Positions 222 to 22,826 of a stretch of 32,000 bases of DNA are shown here, one piece after another. The notes below the pieces were generated by a model. That model worked only from the letters and a program-made list of their open reading frames with translations, did not search any database and was not told the origin of the DNA. Origin of the DNA: an uncultured Mycoplasmatota bacterium (lineage in GTDB: Bacteria; Bacillota_I; Bacilli_A; RF39; UBA660); assembly GCA_948465965.1 (NCBI GenBank), contig CAOJYR010000001.1:40353-72352 (forward strand). Direction: 5' to 3'. The number at the start of each line of letters is the position of its first letter. The stretch's first letter is position 1. The position numbers were made by a program, and so were the translations under genes.

Positions 222-404
222 AAAAAAAGCCAGAAAAGAGCGTCCTGTCCAACGATAAAACCTGCATATTTACAGGTGGGTGTTCTTACGTCATCCTTAG
301 GATCCCTACTAATAAGCAGGTATTCAACACAGATAACTGTTCAAAACTCCCTTATCGTCACTTTAGTCGGTTTTATATGAGAACAAGTCTCGCATCTTCC
401 TGAC
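222..404 (-). ncRNA. candidate structured small RNA of about 180 nt (6S-like end-to-end closing stem); identity unproven
   Basis: GC-enriched, non-coding stretch in an AT-rich context. An extended -10 box (TGgTATAAT, 419-411) sits about 7 nt upstream. The 5' GUCAGGAAG can pair with the 3' CUUUUCUGGC, with G-U pairs, just before a U7 tract (228-222). The + strand ORF 155..403 here looks spurious. Confidence 0.3.
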
Positions 405-410
405 AATTAT

Positions 411-4487: not shown

Positions 4488-5408
4488 TTATGCAACATCA
4501 TCTATTTTATTTATCTGCTCTTTAGTCAAATGGGTATACTTAGATATAAATTCGATATCTATATCATCTTTTAACATCGCTTTAGCTATTTCTTTGGAAC
4601 CTTCTTGTTTACCTAAATCCTTCCATGCCCATTCCTTGTCATAACTTTCTCCAAAAAACTCATCTTCTACTACTTCCTCTGCTTCTTTTATATATTCTTC
4701 CATAATCTCCAAGTCTCCTCCTAATTCTTTTGAAGTTAGAATATCTGGCTCTATTAATCCTAGTGCATATCTTTCTTCTTCACTTAGTCTTTGTATGCCA
4801 CTAGTATACCATTTTCGTCTTAAATTTGGAATATAGATTTGAATAAATATTAACTTATCATTTAATACGACTCCTTCATCATTTTTAATCATATAAATAT
4901 CTATTATTTTATCATTCCCCTTAAAAGAAAAGTTATTCCAGTTGAATTGAATCACCTGTGTATAAGAATAGTCACTATTTCTTTTTACTTTACTTGCATA
5001 AAGTCTATGAGCATATTCCATATTTCGCTCTAGTACTTCTTTACTACTATTATTATTTATTTCTATATTTATTTTAATATCATTCACTATCGCAACATAA
5101 TCACATCTCTCTCCTTTATTTCTTTCTTTATCTTTATCCAATTCTCCTTTTGATAATTTAATATTATTTAGTAAGTCTTCATATTCAATATCTAGGTAAT
5201 ACGATAAAAACTTAGCCGAATACTTTATTCTGTTCTCATTATAAAACATAGTTTTAAACATACTATCTGACATTATAGATGGCTTTTGTCCTTCTTTCAA
5301 TTTTTCAATTTTTACTGAATCCTTATATGAAACAATATTATCATATAAAGACTTATAATTATAATCTCTTAATTTTAACACTTTATTCCTCCCAATAGTT
5401 TGACTCAT
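4488..5408 (-). CDS. PD-(D/E)XK nuclease family, putative transposase (Rpn/YhgA-like), island-flanking copy 1
   Basis: FKTMFYNENRIKYSAKFLSYYL...CDYVA...INIEINNN fits the Rpn-like D...ExQ/N core. Paralogous to 11639..12448. An alternative start is ATG 5273. Confidence 0.55.
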   Translation of the reverse strand: MSQTIGRNKVLKLRDYNYKSLYDNIVSYKDSVKIEKLKEGQKPSIMSDSMFKTMFYNENRIKYSAKFLSYYLDIEYEDLLNNIKLSKGELDKDKERNKGERCDYVAIVNDIKINIEINNNSSKEVLERNMEYAHRLYASKVKRNSDYSYTQVIQFNWNNFSFKGNDKIIDIYMIKNDEGVVLNDKLIFIQIYIPNLRRKWYTSGIQRLSEEERYALGLIEPDILTSKELGGDLEIMEEYIKEAEEVVEDEFFGESYDKEWAWKDLGKQEGSKEIAKAMLKDDIDIEFISKYTHLTKEQINKIDDVA

Positions 5409-5580: not shown

Positions 5581-7188
5581 TCATCTATGCATATTTACAT
5601 TAGAGTAATGGTTACTTGTATCAAGCAATAATCTTTTAAGTTGTTCATCTGTTATATTTATTACTTTTCCACCCTTAGGATTAATTTTTTTACCACCAAA
5701 AACAATCCATATTGCATCAATACTCCTATCTGGCATACTAGATTCTCCATCGGTAAAGATTATCTTGTTTTCAACTCTCCCAGTAAATACATTAACAGCA
5801 ACATCAAAGTTTGTTCCACCACCACCAAGAAATGGCATATTATCAATATCATTTTGATTTCTAATCTCGGTAAACCCATAAAATTCATCATCGAAACATC
5901 CTACTTTTACTTTAGATTCTTTTAAAATGTTTTTACATTCTCTTAAAAAATTCCTTAATAGCGTTTCAGAAACAGACCCACTTGTATCTAATAATATCTC
6001 AGTCTCAGGCTTAGGCATTTGTTCAAGATAAGGAGTTACTACGCCATCCTCTATAGAAGCATTTCTATAAGACCAATCAACATCATACCTCACAGCCTCT
6101 TTCAAGAGATATCTCCAATCGATTAATGGTTTACTTACACCTATATCAGTTACCTTTCTTTCATCACCATTTGACCCCTTCCCAGAACAATGTGACTGAC
6201 TAGCAAGTGATTTTCTTAATTCCTCCAATTGCTTTATTCGATCTATACTATTCTGTTTAAAAGATTTCTTTTCACCTAAATCTGTCAATTTTTTAATTTG
6301 TTGTTCCTTCTCTTTTCGCTTTTCATTCTTTTCCCTTTGAAAATTAGTTTTGGCATCCTCTGAAGTTTTCTCTATTGTTTGCTCATCTTGATTCGCATTA
6401 CCCTTTTTATCATTCCAATCCTTATGAAAAACTCTATCAAAAAAGCCTCTTTTATCTTTGGAGTTTATATTACCTTTAGTACCAACCATATCCGTATCAC
6501 TTGATTGTTGTACCGAATTGTCCTCTAAACCACTATCCTGTTTTTCATGTTGAAAGTCTTGATGTGGTGATTGTTCTAATTTATTATTATTAGCATCCTC
6601 ATCCTCTTGACGTCTTTTCTGGACACCCTTTTGCCACATATTATGTGTATCATACCCCACATCTATATTAGATGCTTGAGAATTTTCACTAGAACCTGAC
6701 CTGCTTTCATTTTGAGAATTCTGTTTCTGGGGACTAATACTATCCTGTGATTCATTACTGTTTTTATCCTGATGCCTTTTCTTATCCTCTAATAATTTCT
6801 CATAAAAAGACTCAGCATCATAATAAATAGCCTCTGGAATATTAATACTATCTTTTGGAATTACTATACCATCTTGTTTTAAATTAGCATTTACAACAGC
6901 ATCCGTTGCTATATTCCAAAGTTCAGGATCCTTCCCTTCACTTCTAAAAATATGATCAAAAGCTATATGACATATTTCATGTGCAAAAAGATACAATCTT
7001 TCTTCTTCTGTTGCATTCCTTAAATAATCTGGATGATAATAAACATTAGTTCCATCCGTCCCTCCAGTTGGTTGACCATTAGAATAACAATTGCTATCTT
7101 CTATATAATTTGTATTTGCTACTATACTTCCAAAAAAAGGATACTTAACTAATAACTTTCTTTTAATTGCTTCAATATCCACTTTCAA
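5581..7188 (-). CDS. putative Zn-metallopeptidase (HExxH) fused to a VWA domain (DUF2201-like), with a long low-complexity linker
   Basis: N-terminal FAHEICHIAFDH...ATDAVVN (HExxH). C-terminal ILLDTSGSVS (DxSGS MIDAS-type motif). A central linker of about 200 aa is rich in Q/S/N/E/K. Confidence 0.7.
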   Translation of the reverse strand: MKVDIEAIKRKLLVKYPFFGSIVANTNYIEDSNCYSNGQPTGGTDGTNVYYHPDYLRNATEEERLYLFAHEICHIAFDHIFRSEGKDPELWNIATDAVVNANLKQDGIVIPKDSINIPEAIYYDAESFYEKLLEDKKRHQDKNSNESQDSISPQKQNSQNESRSGSSENSQASNIDVGYDTHNMWQKGVQKRRQEDEDANNNKLEQSPHQDFQHEKQDSGLEDNSVQQSSDTDMVGTKGNINSKDKRGFFDRVFHKDWNDKKGNANQDEQTIEKTSEDAKTNFQREKNEKRKEKEQQIKKLTDLGEKKSFKQNSIDRIKQLEELRKSLASQSHCSGKGSNGDERKVTDIGVSKPLIDWRYLLKEAVRYDVDWSYRNASIEDGVVTPYLEQMPKPETEILLDTSGSVSETLLRNFLRECKNILKESKVKVGCFDDEFYGFTEIRNQNDIDNMPFLGGGGTNFDVAVNVFTGRVENKIIFTDGESSMPDRSIDAIWIVFGGKKINPKGGKVINITDEQLKRLLLDTSNHYSNVNMHR

Positions 7189-7198
7189 ATTTATATCC

Positions 7199-7597
7199 CT
7201 AAATATGCACCATCAATGAATATACTTCTTCACTAATTGGCTTTTCCTCTAGATTAGTAGCTGTTACAATAATAAAACAATTTCTTGGTAAGTCAAAGGT
7301 ACTAATTTTCTTATATTTTAATATTTCAATAAATTTTGTTTGTTTATCTAGTTTAAGTTGATTTATATTATCTATAATTAGTATTGCAGGTTTATCCTTA
7401 TTATTTGTTAATTCATAGTACCAATCAGGTGCTCTAAAAGTAAAACCTTCATAATGCCCATTTAATAATGAAATATCACAATTTGCATCTATTATGACAG
7501 CATTTTCAAAAATATTCGCAGGAATATCTTCTAACAAAATTGGAGACATACCTGATCGAATATATCCATCTAACATCGCTAATCTCTCTTTGTTCAT
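7199..7597 (-). CDS. small AAA-like protein lacking a Walker A motif
   Basis: PAILIIDNINQL resembles Walker B and CFIIVTATN resembles sensor 1, but no GxxxxGK(S/T) is present. The start overlaps the upstream stop (ATGA, 7597-7594). Confidence 0.45.
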   Translation of the reverse strand: MNKERLAMLDGYIRSGMSPILLEDIPANIFENAVIIDANCDISLLNGHYEGFTFRAPDWYYELTNNKDKPAILIIDNINQLKLDKQTKFIEILKYKKISTFDLPRNCFIIVTATNLEEKPISEEVYSLMVHI

Positions 7598-9207
7598 CGA
7601 CTCATTCCTCCTTCCGATAGCTCAACCATTTTTAATTCTGCTATTTTCTCTAGTCTAGACTCATCACCATGGGACCACAAGCTATCAAAAGTAGCTCCAA
7701 TTTCTGGTCCTAATTTCATAACAAAATTTCTTATAGTTAGTAAATTACTATCATCAACTGAGGAAAGCCCAACTGCTGTTGCAAACTTCTGTGCTGTATT
7801 CATTTCTAAATCCTCTTCTGTATAATTACCATTCAATACATCTTCAACCGTTATAACTCGCTGCCTAGTAAATGCAGTAAAATCTCTTGTTAACTCCTCT
7901 CCAATTAATGCCCTTAACATTTCAGGTTGCCCTGTAGCATACAAAACTTTAGATGCCATCTCCCATTTTCTGGGATCTGCATTTGGTTTTTCCCCATTAT
8001 AGGGAGTCCTTAGAACATCCTTACCACCAGAGGATTTATAAGCAACATATGCATATATTGAAGGATGAATTGTTAATTGTTCCTCTTCTTTTTTATAATT
8101 CAATCTTTCATATTGCTTTTTTGGAGTGGATGCCCATTGAAGCCAATTATCAACTGTTGTATTTATATATACATGAGCAAAACGATTAAATAGTGGTTCT
8201 GCCATTGTATTCGCAGCTAGAGAATCATTTAAATCATTTCCTGCAGCAACAATACGTACATTTTCTGGTAATTTCCAAATACCATTTACTTCTTTGTCCA
8301 AAACAATATTAAACGCCATACCCTGAATAGAAGGAAGCGCATTTGTAATTTCATCAAAAAATACAATATGCAATTTATCAGGTTCATCTTCACATTTCTT
8401 TTTAATTTTAGAAAGCCAAGTTGGAGCTACATCAATCATCTCTCCAGTTGCAGAATTAAAAACACTTTTTCCATTCAAACTCTCAGGAGTTGCATTCCTT
8501 AAATAAATAATCTCACAATCAGGATCAAATTGTTTTACTCTTGCACTTTTACCCTCACTACTTCTACCATGCAAAAAAACCGCAATATTACTTTCCAACG
8601 CACCCCTAATAATTTCTTCTTCTGATACATTTTCAAAATTAAAACCATATGGATTTTGTCTTCTCTCCATTCGTTTTCTTTCTTCATCTGTTAAAGGTTT
8701 GCTTTCTACAAATGATCTATTCTGCATTAAATCAGTTGAAAAATACGTATCCATATATTGTTTTATATCTGTTGTACTAAAATCCCCTTTATAATCTCTC
8801 TTATGTTTAAATTGAACCCCTGCAAATAATATCTTCTCACTAAGCATAATTCCTGATTGCTCATCAACTATCCACTTAACAGGTTCTACTTCTACCCAAA
8901 CATAATCTCCATCGACATACTCACACCCATTAGATAGTGTAAATTTACTACCACCAAAATCTGAATTCGCCAAAACCCTTACATATCTTTTATTATCATA
9001 TTCATATTCATCTATAGTCCTCGGTAAAAACTTTTCATCATATTCATCATATTTTCTTGAATCAACAGTATATGTATTACCTGTTCGTCTCATTCTACCG
9101 CTATGATACGCTTGCTCTAATGTAGACTGCATAAGTTGCGTAGCCACAGTTTGTGGATAGAATCCATACTCAACTTCTAAAATACCGTCATCCGCTCTTC
9201 TACTCAC
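7594..9207 (-). CDS. MoxR-like AAA+ ATPase with an N-terminal beta-rich (DUF6273-like) region; probable body of the DGR target
   Basis: Walker A GRSSEGKS, Walker B HIVFFDEITN, sensor-1 VRIVAAGN. The track start GTG 9207 has no spaced RBS, and the frame stays open upstream through the VR to 9303. Confidence 0.75.
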   Translation of the reverse strand: MSRRADDGILEVEYGFYPQTVATQLMQSTLEQAYHSGRMRRTGNTYTVDSRKYDEYDEKFLPRTIDEYEYDNKRYVRVLANSDFGGSKFTLSNGCEYVDGDYVWVEVEPVKWIVDEQSGIMLSEKILFAGVQFKHKRDYKGDFSTTDIKQYMDTYFSTDLMQNRSFVESKPLTDEERKRMERRQNPYGFNFENVSEEEIIRGALESNIAVFLHGRSSEGKSARVKQFDPDCEIIYLRNATPESLNGKSVFNSATGEMIDVAPTWLSKIKKKCEDEPDKLHIVFFDEITNALPSIQGMAFNIVLDKEVNGIWKLPENVRIVAAGNDLNDSLAANTMAEPLFNRFAHVYINTTVDNWLQWASTPKKQYERLNYKKEEEQLTIHPSIYAYVAYKSSGGKDVLRTPYNGEKPNADPRKWEMASKVLYATGQPEMLRALIGEELTRDFTAFTRQRVITVEDVLNGNYTEEDLEMNTAQKFATAVGLSSVDDSNLLTIRNFVMKLGPEIGATFDSLWSHGDESRLEKIAELKMVELSEGGMSR

Positions 9208-9510
9208 TCCGTTCGTAGAGATATCAGAGATTGAAGAGTACGTTAAAGCTGGGCGAGCACCACCATCGCGTTTAATAACATCGATGTCGTATCTATAACC
9301 ATTCTAGTAAACGACGCGCGCGTCATTATCCTGATCATCAGAACTTGTCCAATACCATCCTGTCCTATCCGCTAAAGTATTATTACTATGGTCAACATAA
9401 TAATCATCATCGACATAAGCGCCCAATAAAATTGAAAAATCTGTTACAGCCGCCTTTGTACCTCTTTTTTTTATAATATTAATTGGATTATTAAAATATT
9501 GATTTTTACA
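9208..9510 (-). pseudogene. DGR variable-region module (KAAVTDFSILLG...GWYWTSS...ARPAL) in frame with the AAA+ ORF, interrupted by TAG at 9306-9304, with no canonical start
   Basis: My translation: CKNQYFNNPINIIKKRGTKAAVTDFSILLGAYVDDDYYVDHSNNTLADRTGWYWTSSDDQDNDARVVY*NGYRYDIDVIKRDGGARPALTYSSISDISTNG, followed by VSRRADDG of the AAA ORF. The pseudogene label is provisional. Confidence 0.6.
9249..9322 (-). repeat. DGR variable repeat (VR)
   Basis: 74-nt match to 10763-10836 with 11 mismatches (9267, 9268, 9275, 9282, 9284, 9288, 9291, 9297, 9298, 9304, 9309). Each mismatch faces a T on the + strand of the TR, which is an A on the coding strand. Confidence 0.93.
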
Positions 9511-10539
9511 TTATTTGACATCTTTTGGTAAAATTTTCCTTTTAAAATTCAAACTTTCATCTGTATTTTTAACATGATTATAAAATGCATTTTTTCGCAT
9601 ATAAACATAAAAGGAATCTACAATATTCTTATTTTCTAATTTTTCTAGTGTTCGTAAATGTTTTTTCATTCTTGATTTAGAAGATGCTCTAAGTTTCCTA
9701 ATAATCTTTCCACTATCTGTTAGTATATGTCTGTAACCTAAAAAATCAATTCCATCACACACTTTCCCAATCTGTGTCTTTTGATTTAAAGATAATTTAA
9801 GTTCTAAAGAGCAAACTCTCTCTATTTCTTTTAAACATCTACGTAAATATGCTTTATCACGATGTATTAAAATCATATCATCCATATACCGAACATAACC
9901 TTTTATTCTAAACCTCTCTTTAATAAGTCGATCAACTTTATTTAAATATAGTAAAGCAAACCATTGACTAGTCTGGTTCCCCAAAGGTAGTCCAATTTTC
10001 ACATCATTAGGTTGCTGTCGTATCATCTTCTCTATAATCCACATTTCATCATCACTAAAGGATACTTCTTTCAATAATTTAATAAGTATATCATGATTAA
10101 TACTAGGAAAATACTTCTTTATATCACACTTTAAAAAGTAAAAATGATTATTATTCTCTTTTAAATACTCATGGCGCAAAAATTTTTCTAATCTATGAAT
10201 CGCAAAATCAGAACCCTTACCACACCTACATGCAGCATTATCAAATATAAGCTTTGCCTCAATCTTTTCTTTAACCGAATGATCACAAAGACACCTTATC
10301 ACTACTCTATCCTTATAAGGAAGAGCTTCAATTAATCTCTCTTTCGGTTCATAAATATAAAATTCGCGATATTTACCCAATTTATATTCTCTGGTAGTAA
10401 TTTCTTTTATTATCTTACTTATATTAACACTAAGATTAGCTTCAAATCGAATCACCTCACCCTTATGTTGTTTGCCTTTGCGACAATTTTTATGGGCTTC
10501 ATATAAATTTTCAAAAGTAAAAATATCTTCTAATTTCAT
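9511..10539 (-). CDS. DGR reverse transcriptase
   Basis: IGLPLGNQTSQ matches the DGR-type (I/L)GxxxSQ. YMDD catalytic box (VRYMDDMILI). An N-terminal FENLYEAHKNCRKGK region is present. Size of about 340 aa with no maturase or endonuclease domains. ATG 10539 lies 4 nt after GGAGGGAG. Confidence 0.9.
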   Translation of the reverse strand: MKLEDIFTFENLYEAHKNCRKGKQHKGEVIRFEANLSVNISKIIKEITTREYKLGKYREFYIYEPKERLIEALPYKDRVVIRCLCDHSVKEKIEAKLIFDNAACRCGKGSDFAIHRLEKFLRHEYLKENNNHFYFLKCDIKKYFPSINHDILIKLLKEVSFSDDEMWIIEKMIRQQPNDVKIGLPLGNQTSQWFALLYLNKVDRLIKERFRIKGYVRYMDDMILIHRDKAYLRRCLKEIERVCSLELKLSLNQKTQIGKVCDGIDFLGYRHILTDSGKIIRKLRASSKSRMKKHLRTLEKLENKNIVDSFYVYMRKNAFYNHVKNTDESLNFKRKILPKDVK

Positions 10540-10551
10540 AACTCCCTCCAA

Positions 10552-10762
10552 AAAAAGAACACCCCTTATAACCTCTAAAGATAGAATAATCTAACGTTAG
10601 AAAGTGTAAGTGTTCAAATTATTCCACCGCACTAATCTCTCCTAGCGGTTAGAAAAGAGAAAAATCCCTTCACTCTATGGAACTGATATATCTTACTTAA
10701 AATATATTTCTCTGTCCTGTTTTCTAGATTCACGATTTTTGTAAATCTCTTCAAAAGTGAAT
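10552..10762 (-). ncRNA. DGR spacer RNA region between TR and RT (part of the TR transcript)
   Basis: Non-coding and GC-enriched relative to its surroundings. Contains the 8-bp hairpin AGATTCAC/GTGAATCT (10726-10733 with 10757-10764) abutting the TR 3' end, and a CCGC...GCGG hairpin near 10628-10650. Confidence 0.6.
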
Positions 10763-10836
10763 CTGGGCGAGCACCACCATTTCGTTTATTAACATTGTTG
10801 TTGTTTCTATTTCCATTTTAGTTAACGACGCGCGCG
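10763..10836 (-). repeat. DGR template repeat (TR)
   Basis: In the target frame the coding strand reads cgc gtc gtt AAC TAA AAT gga AAT aga AAC AAC AAC AAT gtt AAT aaa cga AAT ggt ggt gct cgc cca. This is the AAY-codon-rich pattern typical of DGR TRs. It is non-coding, between avd and RT. Confidence 0.93.
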
Positions 10837-10924: not shown

Positions 10925-11503
10925 TCATTTTCTAAATCTTTTATCGTCACTTTTTTTCCAAGCAACAATCAAATTTATAGCATCAGCTGTCTGTAAAGAT
11001 ATCTGCCTATATTGCTTTCTTAAAATACAGCCAGATGATTCCGCAACCATTGCAATATAGCCAAGCATTTTAAGTTTAACAATTGCTTCTTTTTGAAAAT
11101 CTTCACGACGCTTCTTATTTAGATCACTATCCAGTCTTATAAAATTGGCCTGAAGCAAATCTTCTAAAACATCTAAACAATAATTTTGCATTCGATTAAC
11201 AAAAACTCCTCTAAATCTTTTAGGAGATTTCTCTGTAATAGCTATAACATAAGCACATAATTTCTTTACTTTAGTTATAACAATTAAATCATTAGAATTA
11301 AAAGGTATCTTAGAAACACTCTCTAATTCTCTGTCAAAGTCTTCCACCTGCTCTAAAATCTTCTTCTCATTGATTTTTTTATCATTCGCCATCGCAATAG
11401 ATATTTTTGATTCAACTTCATCATCTACACTATTCACGACTTTTACGACTTGTTCTACTTCTTTTGGTATTTTCAAACTACCATCTCTACTAACTTGTAA
11501 CAC
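10925..11503 (-). CDS. avd: Avd-like accessory variability determinant (four-helix-bundle family) with an N-terminal extension
   Basis: The C-terminal ~120 aa (KLCAYVIAITEKSPKRFRGVFVNRMQNYCLDVLEDLLQAN...LKMLGYIAMVAESSGCILRKQYRQISLQ...AWKKSD) resembles Avd and 23S-IVS helical bundle proteins, and the gene sits in the canonical position 5' of the TR. GTG 11503 lies 8 nt after GGAGGG. The track start 11563 falls in a -35 box. Confidence 0.7.
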   Translation of the reverse strand: MLQVSRDGSLKIPKEVEQVVKVVNSVDDEVESKISIAMANDKKINEKKILEQVEDFDRELESVSKIPFNSNDLIVITKVKKLCAYVIAITEKSPKRFRGVFVNRMQNYCLDVLEDLLQANFIRLDSDLNKKRREDFQKEAIVKLKMLGYIAMVAESSGCILRKQYRQISLQTADAINLIVAWKKSDDKRFRK

Positions 11504-11534
11504 TACTACTACCCTCCAAGTTAATTTTAATAAT

Positions 11535-11563
11535 AGTATAATGTAACACAAAAATTTACGCAA
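11535..11563 (-). promoter_or_regulatory. sigma-A-type promoter of the DGR operon (TTGCGT-17 nt-TATACT)
   Basis: -35 box at 11563-11558, -10 box at 11540-11535, spacer of 17 nt, about 30 nt upstream of the avd start. Confidence 0.45.
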
Positions 11564-11638: not shown

Positions 11639-12448
11639 CTATTTTAACTTTTCTACTTCTTCAATGGATAATTTTGTTATTTTAGAAATTGTACCAATAT
11701 CTATTTTTTCCTTTATCATCTCTTTTGCCATATTTATTGTATTGTCTTTCGCACCATCATTATATGATTCTTCTTTTAAAGCTAATTCTTTATCATAAAT
11801 CTCACCAAAATATTCATCATCTAATACCTCATTTACTTCTTTTATATAGTCTTTCATAATTTTTAAGTCTCCTCCCAATTCTTTAGAAGAAATTATATTT
11901 GGCTCTACTAAAGCCAATATAAATCTTTCTGCTTCGGTTAGGTTTTGTATACCTTGATTGTACCATTTTCTCCTTAAATTGGGAATATAGATTTGAATAA
12001 ATATTATATCATTTGAGAGTCTTAATTTTCCTTTATTATTTATTGTATAGATATCTATTACTTTATTATTTCCAACGAATGAAAAGTTATTTAAATTAAA
12101 TTGTATTATTTGCCTATATTTATAAGTGGATTTGTCTTTTCCTCTTTTTACTTTACTTCCATATAATTTGAATGCATAGTCCATGTTCCTCTTTAAATAT
12201 TTCATATTACTATTACTATTACTATTATTATTTACCTCAATATTTATTCTAGCATCATCTATACCCGCTACATAATCACTTCTATATTCCTTATTATTAT
12301 GTTTTTCTTTGTCCAACTCTCCCTTGCTTAACCTTATATTTTCTAACAATTCTTCATAACTTATATCTAGAAAGTATGAAATGAATTTAACACTATACTT
12401 AAGTCTATTTTCATTATAGAAAATAGTATGAAATAGCGTATCAGACAT
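11639..12448 (-). CDS. PD-(D/E)XK nuclease family, putative transposase (Rpn/YhgA-like), island-flanking copy 2, N-terminally shortened
   Basis: Collinear with 4488..5408 (FHTIFYNENRLKYSVKFISYFL...SDYVA...INIEVNNN) and shares identical nucleotide runs such as ggaatatagatttgaataaatatta. Homologous coding-like sequence continues upstream to the recO stop without a start codon. Confidence 0.55.
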   Translation of the reverse strand: MSDTLFHTIFYNENRLKYSVKFISYFLDISYEELLENIRLSKGELDKEKHNNKEYRSDYVAGIDDARINIEVNNNSNSNSNMKYLKRNMDYAFKLYGSKVKRGKDKSTYKYRQIIQFNLNNFSFVGNNKVIDIYTINNKGKLRLSNDIIFIQIYIPNLRRKWYNQGIQNLTEAERFILALVEPNIISSKELGGDLKIMKDYIKEVNEVLDDEYFGEIYDKELALKEESYNDGAKDNTINMAKEMIKEKIDIGTISKITKLSIEEVEKLK

Positions 12449-22749: not shown

Positions 22750-22826
22750 TGGTGTCCGCGAGGCGACTCGAACGCCTGACCGATCGCTTAGAAGGCGATT
22801 GCTCTATCCAGCTGAGCTACGCAGAC
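22750..22826 (-). tRNA. tRNA-Arg (anticodon TCT), CCA encoded
   Basis: The minus strand reads GTCTGCGTAGCTCAGCTGGATAGAGCAATCGCCTTCTAAGCGATCGGTCAGGCGTTCGAGTCGCCTCGCGGACACCA. It has the D-loop AGCTCAGCTGGATAGAGC, the anticodon loop CTTCTAA, and the T-loop GTTCGAGTC. Confidence 0.9.

Follow-up and report, generated by a model that had tools for sequence, protein, structure and literature searches.

In a 32,000-nt stretch of the genome of an uncultured Mycoplasmatota bacterium (GCA_948465965.1, contig CAOJYR010000001.1; hereafter the window, in which all coordinates are given), a reverse transcriptase (RT), a variable-repeat (VR) module and an AAA+ ATPase are laid out in a single reading frame that is broken only by two stop codons, and the VR module lacks a start codon. 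An earlier note, made from the letters of the window, considered a decaying target, unusual initiation or re-initiation after the RT, and stop-codon readthrough as possible explanations of this layout. Are the three parts translated together, or is this a broken gene? Our analysis indicates that they belong to a cassette of a diversity-generating retroelement (DGR), with the VR module and the ATPase forming one target gene, and we consider it very probable that two lesions met in this gene: a deletion of its start and a stop codon in the VR templated by the template repeat (TR). The window itself is in this respect ordinary, as the start of a DGR target has been lost to a small deletion and the shared frame is meaningless. 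What deserves more attention is a DGR clade with stop codons in its templates, a VR placed at the N-terminus of a MoxR-like AAA+ protein, and nonsense codons in about half of the sampled alleles. All features of the cassette lie on the minus strand and are as follows:

10925..11563 (-), avd-like accessory gene of the DGR; its real start probably lies inside the open reading frame (ORF)
10760..10836 (-), TR, a 77-nt direct repeat of the VR, with an in-frame TAA at 10820-10818 (VR frame)
9511..10551 (-), DGR RT, 346 aa, with its stop codon TAA at 9513-9511
9501..9502 (-), apparent deletion junction, at which ~56 nt of the orthologues are absent: a -10-like box, the Shine-Dalgarno (SD) sequence GGTGAT, ATG and ~9 codons (MNNFTFLTE)
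9307..9510 (-), leftover 5' part of the target gene, 68 codons reading CKNQYFNNPINIIKKRGTKAAVTDFSILLGAYV..., without a start codon
9246..9322 (-), VR in the N-terminal module, with TAG 9306-9304 at the position of the TR TAA
9200..9218 (-), conserved hairpin 3' of the VR, with stem CTAC/GTAG and loop GAACGGAGTGA
7594..9303 (-), remainder of the target gene, comprising the last part of the variable module, a beta-rich middle domain and a MoxR-like AAA+ ATPase; the 537-aa ORF called from GTG 9207 is no more than the part of it left open
7199..7597 (-), 132-aa partner gene, overlapping the target stop codon (ATGA)
5581..7188 (-), partner gene with DUF2201_N (putative metallopeptidase) and VWA-like DUF2201 domains (Pfam E=2.6e-27 and 4.7e-11)

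A DGR cassette and its shared reading frame

Translation of 10551-7594 (-) in one frame gives 986 codons with just two internal stops, the TAA that ends the RT and the TAG in the VR, and thereby confirms the single frame from RT through VR module to ATPase described in the earlier note; the sense codons between the two stops (9510-9307) number 68. In the ORF table the same stretch appears as the RT ORF (9511-10551), a 40-aa ORF that opens with TTG and ends at the TAG, and a 537-aa ORF running from GTG 9207 to 7594. The genetic code is the standard one: the 31 long ORFs of the window are closed by TAA (18), TGA (8) and TAG (5), and an alternative code was ruled out because ordinary ORFs end in all three stop codons.

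The region is one DGR cassette with the order avd, TR, RT and target, displaying the adenine-specific pattern of TR/VR differences, an RT beside the TR and recognition elements in the target. TR (10836-10760) and VR (9322-9246) differ at 12 positions, all 12 of them TR adenines, and the first difference at another base falls beyond the shared 3' end of the repeat. This end includes an invariant G+C-rich segment of 18 nt, ATGGTGGTGCTCGCCCAG, which occurs in the window only in the TR and the VR. The RT matches Pfam RVT_1 (E=1e-17), its translation contains YMDD and the DGR-type ...GNQTSQ motif, the SQ dipeptide of which is a signature of DGR RTs (PMC3521204), and it is 62-71% identical to the RTs at the same position in orthologous loci. 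The latter were gathered by a scan of species-representative genomes that yielded 78 loci, mostly from gut metagenome-assembled genomes (MAGs) labelled "Bacilli" or "Tenericutes"; the order avd, TR, RT, target, 132-aa gene and DUF2201/VWA gene is common to ~20 of these 78 and to further metagenome loci. The avd-like ORF matches the bAvd model of Pfam (E=5.5e-5) and the DivGenRetAVD model of NCBIfam (E=2.7e-7), both below the curated cut-offs, and is syntenic with genes of 68-77% identity lying upstream of TR and RT in ~20 loci. The cis elements of homing, namely the G+C-rich VR end and the hairpin, appear to be intact.

Compared with the DGR of Bordetella phage BPP-1 (Avd, TR, Brt and the target mtd), the window shares the Avd-like gene, the TR and an RT with YMDD and SQ, as well as VR-TR differences restricted to TR adenines, a G+C-rich VR 3' end and a structured hairpin with a covarying stem 3' of the VR. 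It differs in its gene order (avd-TR-RT-target) and in the N-terminal position of the VR, which places the end resembling the initiation-of-mutagenic-homing element, together with the hairpin, inside coding sequence. It also differs in having an in-frame stop in the TR and a variable module with no C-type-lectin match.

That the VR module and the ATPase share a frame is trivial, both being one gene. A search with the fused translation (638-aa query, with X at the TAG) returned 3213 matches, of which the best 120 are mostly single proteins of 630-660 aa covering 98-100% of the query. The homologues begin MNNFTFLTEEQIFG, and among the same best 120 of 3213 their consensus is M(N/S)(N/D)FTFLTEEQIFGxxxLDIIKKRGTKAAITDFSILLGGYV; the window translation enters this alignment only at ...NQYFNNPINIIKKRGTKAAVTDF, with ~10 N-terminal residues absent. 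The 68-codon remnant aligns to residues ~10-78 of more than 100 full-length homologues. As these alignments show, "VR module" and "AAA+ ATPase" are parts of a single target gene that normally encodes ~640 aa. The normal product opens with a hypervariable module, with the VR at residues ~65-95, continues with a beta-rich domain and ends in a MoxR-like AAA+ ATPase.

The frame shared by RT and target, on the other hand, is a coincidence, for which the prior is one in three. In 42 orthologous loci the target lies in frame with the RT in 7, and is displaced by one and two nucleotides in 12 and 23, respectively; the shared frame of the window is incidental because this relation varies among orthologues. 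It is nevertheless the feature that speaks for programmed stop-codon readthrough or recoding, whereby a frame broken only by a TAA and a TAG would yield an RT-VR module-ATPase polyprotein. Against this, all three stop codons close ordinary genes of the window, the in-frame arrangement occurs in only 7/42 orthologues, the orthologues have an intergenic region bearing a -10-like box and an SD, and the TAG occupies a hypervariable, TR-templated codon rather than a conserved recoding site. Furthermore, TAA followed by T, as at the RT stop, is a strong termination context. With a standard code and a frame relation that is not conserved, readthrough finds no support and we regard it as extremely unlikely; RT, VR module and ATPase are probably not translated as one unit.

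The missing start codon of the target gene

The target frame was scanned from 9510 to 9100 for ATG, GTG or TTG preceded by an SD match at a spacing of 3-13 nt, and no in-frame start with an SD at workable spacing was found in this interval; the absence of a usable start between 9510 and 9307, as stated in the earlier note, is therefore upheld. The only in-frame candidates are TTG 9426 and ATG 9132, neither of which has an SD, and GTG 9207, which GGA directly abuts. Likewise, no canonical start with an SD of at least 5 nt was found in any frame between 9600 and 9100.

Three further candidates were examined and rejected. The SD-like AAGAGGT that had been noticed earlier is indeed present, although one base away from where it was placed, at 9466-9460; it was ruled out as an SD, being the codons for a K-R-G that is conserved in the orthologues. 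An ATG within "gATGtcaaataatg" (+1 frame, encoding MSNNVKINILIIQLIL up to a stop), which might have been the original start followed by a frameshift, was dismissed because the stretch aligns to the -35-like "TTGTCAAATAATGG" of the orthologues' intergenic region and not to their start codon. Slippage on the A8 run at 9472-9465, which reads K-K in the target frame, was also ruled out, as the +1 ORF ends at a TAA made by the first bases of the run itself.

The orthologous loci point to what has happened to the start. In 42/42 orthologous RT-target junctions the RT stop is followed by 42-184 nt containing an SD (mostly GGTGAT) and an ATG, and all 18 junctions compared at the nucleotide level have, in addition, a -10-like box of the form TATGnTAnnAT. 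The distance from FYNH[IV]K of the RT to [IV]TDF of the target is 138 nt in the window versus 207-250 nt in 14 loci, every one of which has TATGnTAnnAT, GGTGAT and ATG. At the junction itself the window reads ...TGTCAAATAATGTAAAAAT followed immediately by CAATATTTTAATAATCCA, whereas locus L161 reads ...TGTCGAATAATGGAAAAAT, then ATGGTATGATGATATTGGTGATATGTATGAAAAATTTTACATTTTTAACAGAAGAT and then CAATGCTTTAATAATCCA, the middle segment being the 56 nt that are absent from the window. The same gap is seen in a 15-locus alignment, and with the breakpoints set against L161, L164 and L165 the deletion comes to ~56 nt (51-57 nt by the relative compared), with its junction between 9502 and 9501. Lost with it are the target's own -10 box, SD and ATG and ~9 codons. 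The comparison thus shows that the target has, by all appearances, lost its start through a ~56-nt deletion in this genome, and for the missing start the suggestion of a decaying target is borne out by the 42 orthologous junctions. The RT now runs on into what is left of the former intergenic region, where a TAA ends it, and the leftover target codons stand directly behind this stop, in the RT frame by chance.

Could the gene still be expressed from an unconventional start, be it a non-canonical codon or one used through re-initiation or coupling once the RT has terminated? The gap between the RT stop and the first leftover target codon is 0 nt, and in-frame ATT/ATA codons are present at 9483, 9477 and 9474. 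However, all three of these codons lack an SD; no ATG, GTG or TTG lies near the RT stop in the target frame, and an ATG that overlaps the TAA (TAATG) runs into another TAA at once. Moreover, the 42 orthologues each have their own SD and ATG 42-184 nt past the RT stop, and any translation begun here would anyway end at the TAG. Unusual initiation or re-initiation thus goes unsupported, the orthologous targets being separately initiated and in variable frame, and we judge it very unlikely.

A different proposal is that the AAA+ protein naturally starts at GTG 9207 and that what precedes this codon either does not code for protein or is a dead remnant. Gene callers do give this 537-aa ORF in the window and in several relatives (P0001, P0010, P0044 and P0079), but the N-terminal module is present in more than 100 homologues, and the truncated calls examined are all due to lesions: a VR stop in L161 and L162, a VR frameshift in L162 and L165, a stop 4 codons upstream of the VR in L164, and a TR-VR deletion in L002. 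In addition, the GTG and the abutting GGA lie in the loop of a covarying hairpin and encode a conserved N-G-V. The note had named a natural start at 9207 as a finding that would overturn its view; homologues that include the N-terminal module speak to the contrary, and such a start is highly improbable.

This hairpin is found 37-40 nt 3' of the VR end in all loci, within coding sequence. In the window 9218-9215 pairs with 9203-9200 to form the stem CTAC/GTAG; the 11-nt loop, GAACGGAGTGA, hardly varies among loci. Across 21 loci the four core pairs are paired in 96.4% of cells, as against 42-63% in slid controls, with compensatory changes in 3 of the 4 core pairs (16 cells). The hairpin is probably the target-recognition hairpin of the DGR, and its loop, which contains "GGAG GTG(9207)" and also encodes the N-G-V of the peptide SxNGV, explains both the conservation of this peptide and the spurious "GGAG-GTG start"; GGAG was accordingly ruled out as a ribosome-binding site. 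Retrohoming in BPP-1 and other DGRs depends on a hairpin or cruciform 4-34 bp 3' of the VR, and hairpins of the BPP-1 type have stems of 7-10 bp and a 4-nt GRNA loop (PMC3240598), in contrast to the 4-7 bp stem and 11-nt loop found here. In its position and its stem covariation the present hairpin resembles them.

Stop codons in the VR and in the template repeats

The second lesion has a different origin. Read in the VR frame, the TR gives A R V V N stop N G N R N N N N V N K R N G G A R P, in which the stop is the TAA at 10820-10818, and the VR codon at this position is TAG 9306-9304, with an A to G change at the third base. The VR TAG is thus an adenine-mutagenized copy, made by retrohoming, of a TAA already present in the template, and is an event separate from the deletion. 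For the TAG, then, the idea of a decaying target does not hold: the stop is templated by the TR, and TR stops occur clade-wide.

In 28 related loci the TR could be aligned with the VR, and these loci were assigned to clades by an RT tree. In the clade of the window (VR consensus ARVV/ARAV) 13/17 TRs contain at least one in-frame TAA, TAG or TGA, and in the sister clade 0/9 do so. The control consisted of TR/VR pairs extracted from 39 DGRs that are more distant and were retrieved with the RT; in-frame TR stops are seen in none of the 35 with a credible frame. Within the window's clade the stops occupy several different codon positions, and because their positions differ they arose more than once.

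The 22 ungapped pairs contain 564 TR adenines, of which 40% have another base in the VR (G in 19%, T in 10% and C in 10%), and 18/1157 non-adenine positions are changed. From these substitution rates a TR stop is expected to stay a stop in ~60% of unselected homing events, and 7/13 were observed to do so. In an unbiased subset comprising genome representatives, RT-based metagenome loci and the window, the VR has a stop at 6/13 TR stop codons, the codon of L035 being counted in. At codons where the TR has no stop, VR stops number 0/625. The first T of the templated stop, a base normally untouched by adenine mutagenesis, is changed in 3/16 VR codons versus 1.6% of other non-adenine positions (Fisher p=0.002), the VRs of L010, L035 and L164 having AGA, CCG and GAA opposite a TR TAA. 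These first-T changes look like the result of selection to escape the stop.

The stops are confined to the variable region. In 19 targets of the clade the internal stops all lie at query residues 59-80, either inside the VR or a few codons from it, and the ~520-codon ATPase part contains none. For the ATPase part the ratio of nonsynonymous to synonymous substitution rates (dN/dS) ranges from 0.13 to 0.27, with a value of 0.145 for L009/L019, both of whose TRs have two stops. The ATPase part is therefore under purifying selection despite about half of the cognate VR codons being stops, and the evidence says that the clade as a whole is not simply decaying. Individual copies are dead, including L165 and L162 with their VR frameshifts and L164 with its stop four codons upstream of the VR. 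In L002 (1260-1440) a remnant of avd is followed by a TR/VR hybrid repeat fused to an ATPase part of 77% identity, the RT and the N-terminal module being gone, apparently by TR-VR recombination.

The missing start or the TAG, or both, might instead be artefacts of assembling or sequencing a repeat-bearing, hypervariable locus. The window apparently comes from a metagenome-type assembly, and VRs are heterogeneous in populations. However, another assembly, L001 (ENA ERZ14864794), agrees with the window at every base of the 441 nt that span the RT 3' end, the junction, the VR with its TAG and the sequence up to the start of the 537-aa ORF, and the deletion lies outside the repeat. The VR TAG also differs from the TR TAA, as do the VR stops from the TR stops in L006, L013 (twice) and L019, and chimeras of TR and VR made in assembly are excluded for these stops because the two codons differ. 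An artefact is accordingly very unlikely. Several points nonetheless weigh against the reading of a deleted start and a templated stop. The two agreeing assemblies may share one sample, and the coverage of L001 is low, at 3.8x; the consensus of a hypervariable repeat in a MAG or metagenome can misrepresent the population. The nearest relatives with an intact junction are only ~70% identical (a metagenome scan with the RT found none above 70%, and the genome scan none above 66%), which makes the exact size of the deletion (51-57 nt) and its age estimates. Finally, there may be weak initiation at a non-canonical codon, or an internal start that yields the ATPase alone.

On the reading of a start deletion combined with a TR-templated stop, this copy would currently be a double-null allele and is most likely untranslated. 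The two lesions would differ in their prospects. The VR stop should be reversible, since TR and RT, together with the G+C-rich end of the VR and the hairpin behind it, appear intact, and a further round of retrohoming could rewrite the TAG; the deleted start could not be rewritten by the DGR and its loss would be irreversible.

TR adenines are said to be placed so that nonsense codons are avoided (10.1101/2023.09.22.558884, 10.1101/2024.11.15.621889, PMC12875486), and the template stops described here contradict the statement, repeated in the DGR literature, that this placement never makes nonsense codons. TR stop codons are not mentioned in the available main text of two large DGR surveys (PMC5758913, 10.1101/2020.04.01.020958). 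The window TR departs from the usual placement, yet its membership among the DGRs stands, because adenine placement is a usual and not a defining property.

One possible interpretation, to which we give less credence than to its negation and which we offer tentatively, is that TR stops are a maintained feature and that the DGR acts as a phase-variation switch of the MoxR-like AAA+/VWA system. Every round of retrohoming would then diversify the N-terminal module anew and at the same time, with a probability of ~0.6 per TR stop codon, turn the system OFF; a later event could turn it ON again. Stop codons in the template would also bring T-N-N codons within reach and give access to Trp, Cys, Phe, Tyr and Leu, of which Trp is unreachable from the usual AAY codons. 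If the TR stops are functional, the stochastic and reversible ON/OFF behavior would be shared with classical phase variation by slipped-strand repeats or invertible promoters, but the mechanism proposed here is retrohoming from a stop-bearing template, coupled to diversification. Should selection maintain the TR stops, DGRs can be ON/OFF switches besides being diversifiers. Alternatively, the template stops may be a tolerated cost.

The target protein, its partners and its surroundings

The ATPase part of the target gives weak, sub-threshold matches to AAA_5 and Sigma54_activat, and no curated MoxR model reaches its cut-off. In tblastn searches it is 22-28% identical to genes annotated as MoxR-family ATPases on plasmids and as "ATPase" in jumbo phages; the phage and plasmid collections returned distant matches to the AAA+ domain only. 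An AlphaFold model of an intact orthologue, P0005, is very confident over residues 1-270 and moderately confident over the AAA+ part, which in Foldseek matches the AAA+ domains of MCM and dynein (helix-2-insert type). Residues 1-272 of P0005 modelled alone, corresponding to ~9510-8700 of the window and thus to the variable module and the beta-rich domain, reach a pLDDT of 92.6 and a pTM of 0.91, and have no significant Foldseek match in the PDB (best E 0.13) or BFVD; a sequence-profile search of the PDB with the variable module also returned nothing. Going by this predicted structure, the variable module and the beta-rich domain may have a fold without precedent among the DGR variable proteins solved so far. 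A C-type-lectin (CLec) fold with a C-terminal VR, as in Mtd and TvpA, was not recovered, the VR being N-terminal and the module having no CLec match; a very divergent CLec fold in the variable module is conceivable. Pfam DUF6273 matches weakly in 7/49 family members. Distant DGRs L088-L092 (RT ~52-54% identical) have VRs of the form WLRSAY...NGCARPAL that start 81-96 codons into the ORF, and their TRs are without in-frame stops; the position of these VRs indicates that DUF6273-like N-terminal VR modules extend beyond the clade of the window.

The 132-aa gene, which has no family match, lies directly 3' of the target in nearly all loci, and the DUF2201/VWA gene is kept downstream in the orthologous loci. 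Searches of NCBIfam gave nothing useful for the target or partner genes, and PADLOC assigned no match to a defence system. Pairs of a MoxR AAA+ protein and a VWA partner offer a parallel in domain content: the MoxR-like ATPase domain (22-28% identity) and a downstream VWA-like DUF2201 gene are shared, but the window protein differs in its 270-residue N-terminal extension with the DGR-diversified module. Many genomes have tandem arrays of 2-4 paralogues of the target gene (L062, L063, L067, L072, L075 and L077), some of them without an RT within the fetched flank.

N-terminal VRs are rare, accounting for 3/372 in the available text of the survey of Wu et al. 2018, in which the recognition elements then overlap the coding sequence (PMC5758913). 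The window shares with the N-terminal or internal VR DGRs described in that part of the survey both a VR that is not C-terminal and the overlap of recognition elements with coding sequence; the AAA+/DUF2201 architecture is not mentioned in it. The NTPase "antigen sensor" DGRs of multicellular bacteria (10.1101/2023.09.22.558884) are likewise chromosomal and diversify a module that is presumed to bind ligands and is joined to an NTPase, within a multi-gene operon resembling a conflict system. In contrast to the window, their TR adenines are reported to avoid nonsense codons, and the window is further set apart by its MoxR-like AAA+, its VWA/DUF2201 partner, its gut-dwelling, low-GC Bacilli hosts and its lack of a PADLOC match.

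There are also consequences for annotation, in that such targets are routinely split into a small ORF and a "537-aa ATPase". They would probably be missed by DGR-finding pipelines built on the requirement of an intact ORF or of a VR that is C-terminal and of CLec fold.

The cassette block is flanked by two paralogous genes for PD-(D/E)XK "Rpn-like" putative transposases or nucleases at 4488-5408 and 11639-12448 (both -); the former matches Pfam PDDEXK_2 and the latter shares FYNENR(I/L)KYS(A/V)KF with it by eye. ORFs resembling the housekeeping genes recO and era, assigned by eye, adjoin the block. Unrelated to the target gene, the window further contains a 6S RNA at 224-408 (-), whose 47.9 bits slightly exceed the gathering score, and a single tRNA gene at 22753-22826 (-).

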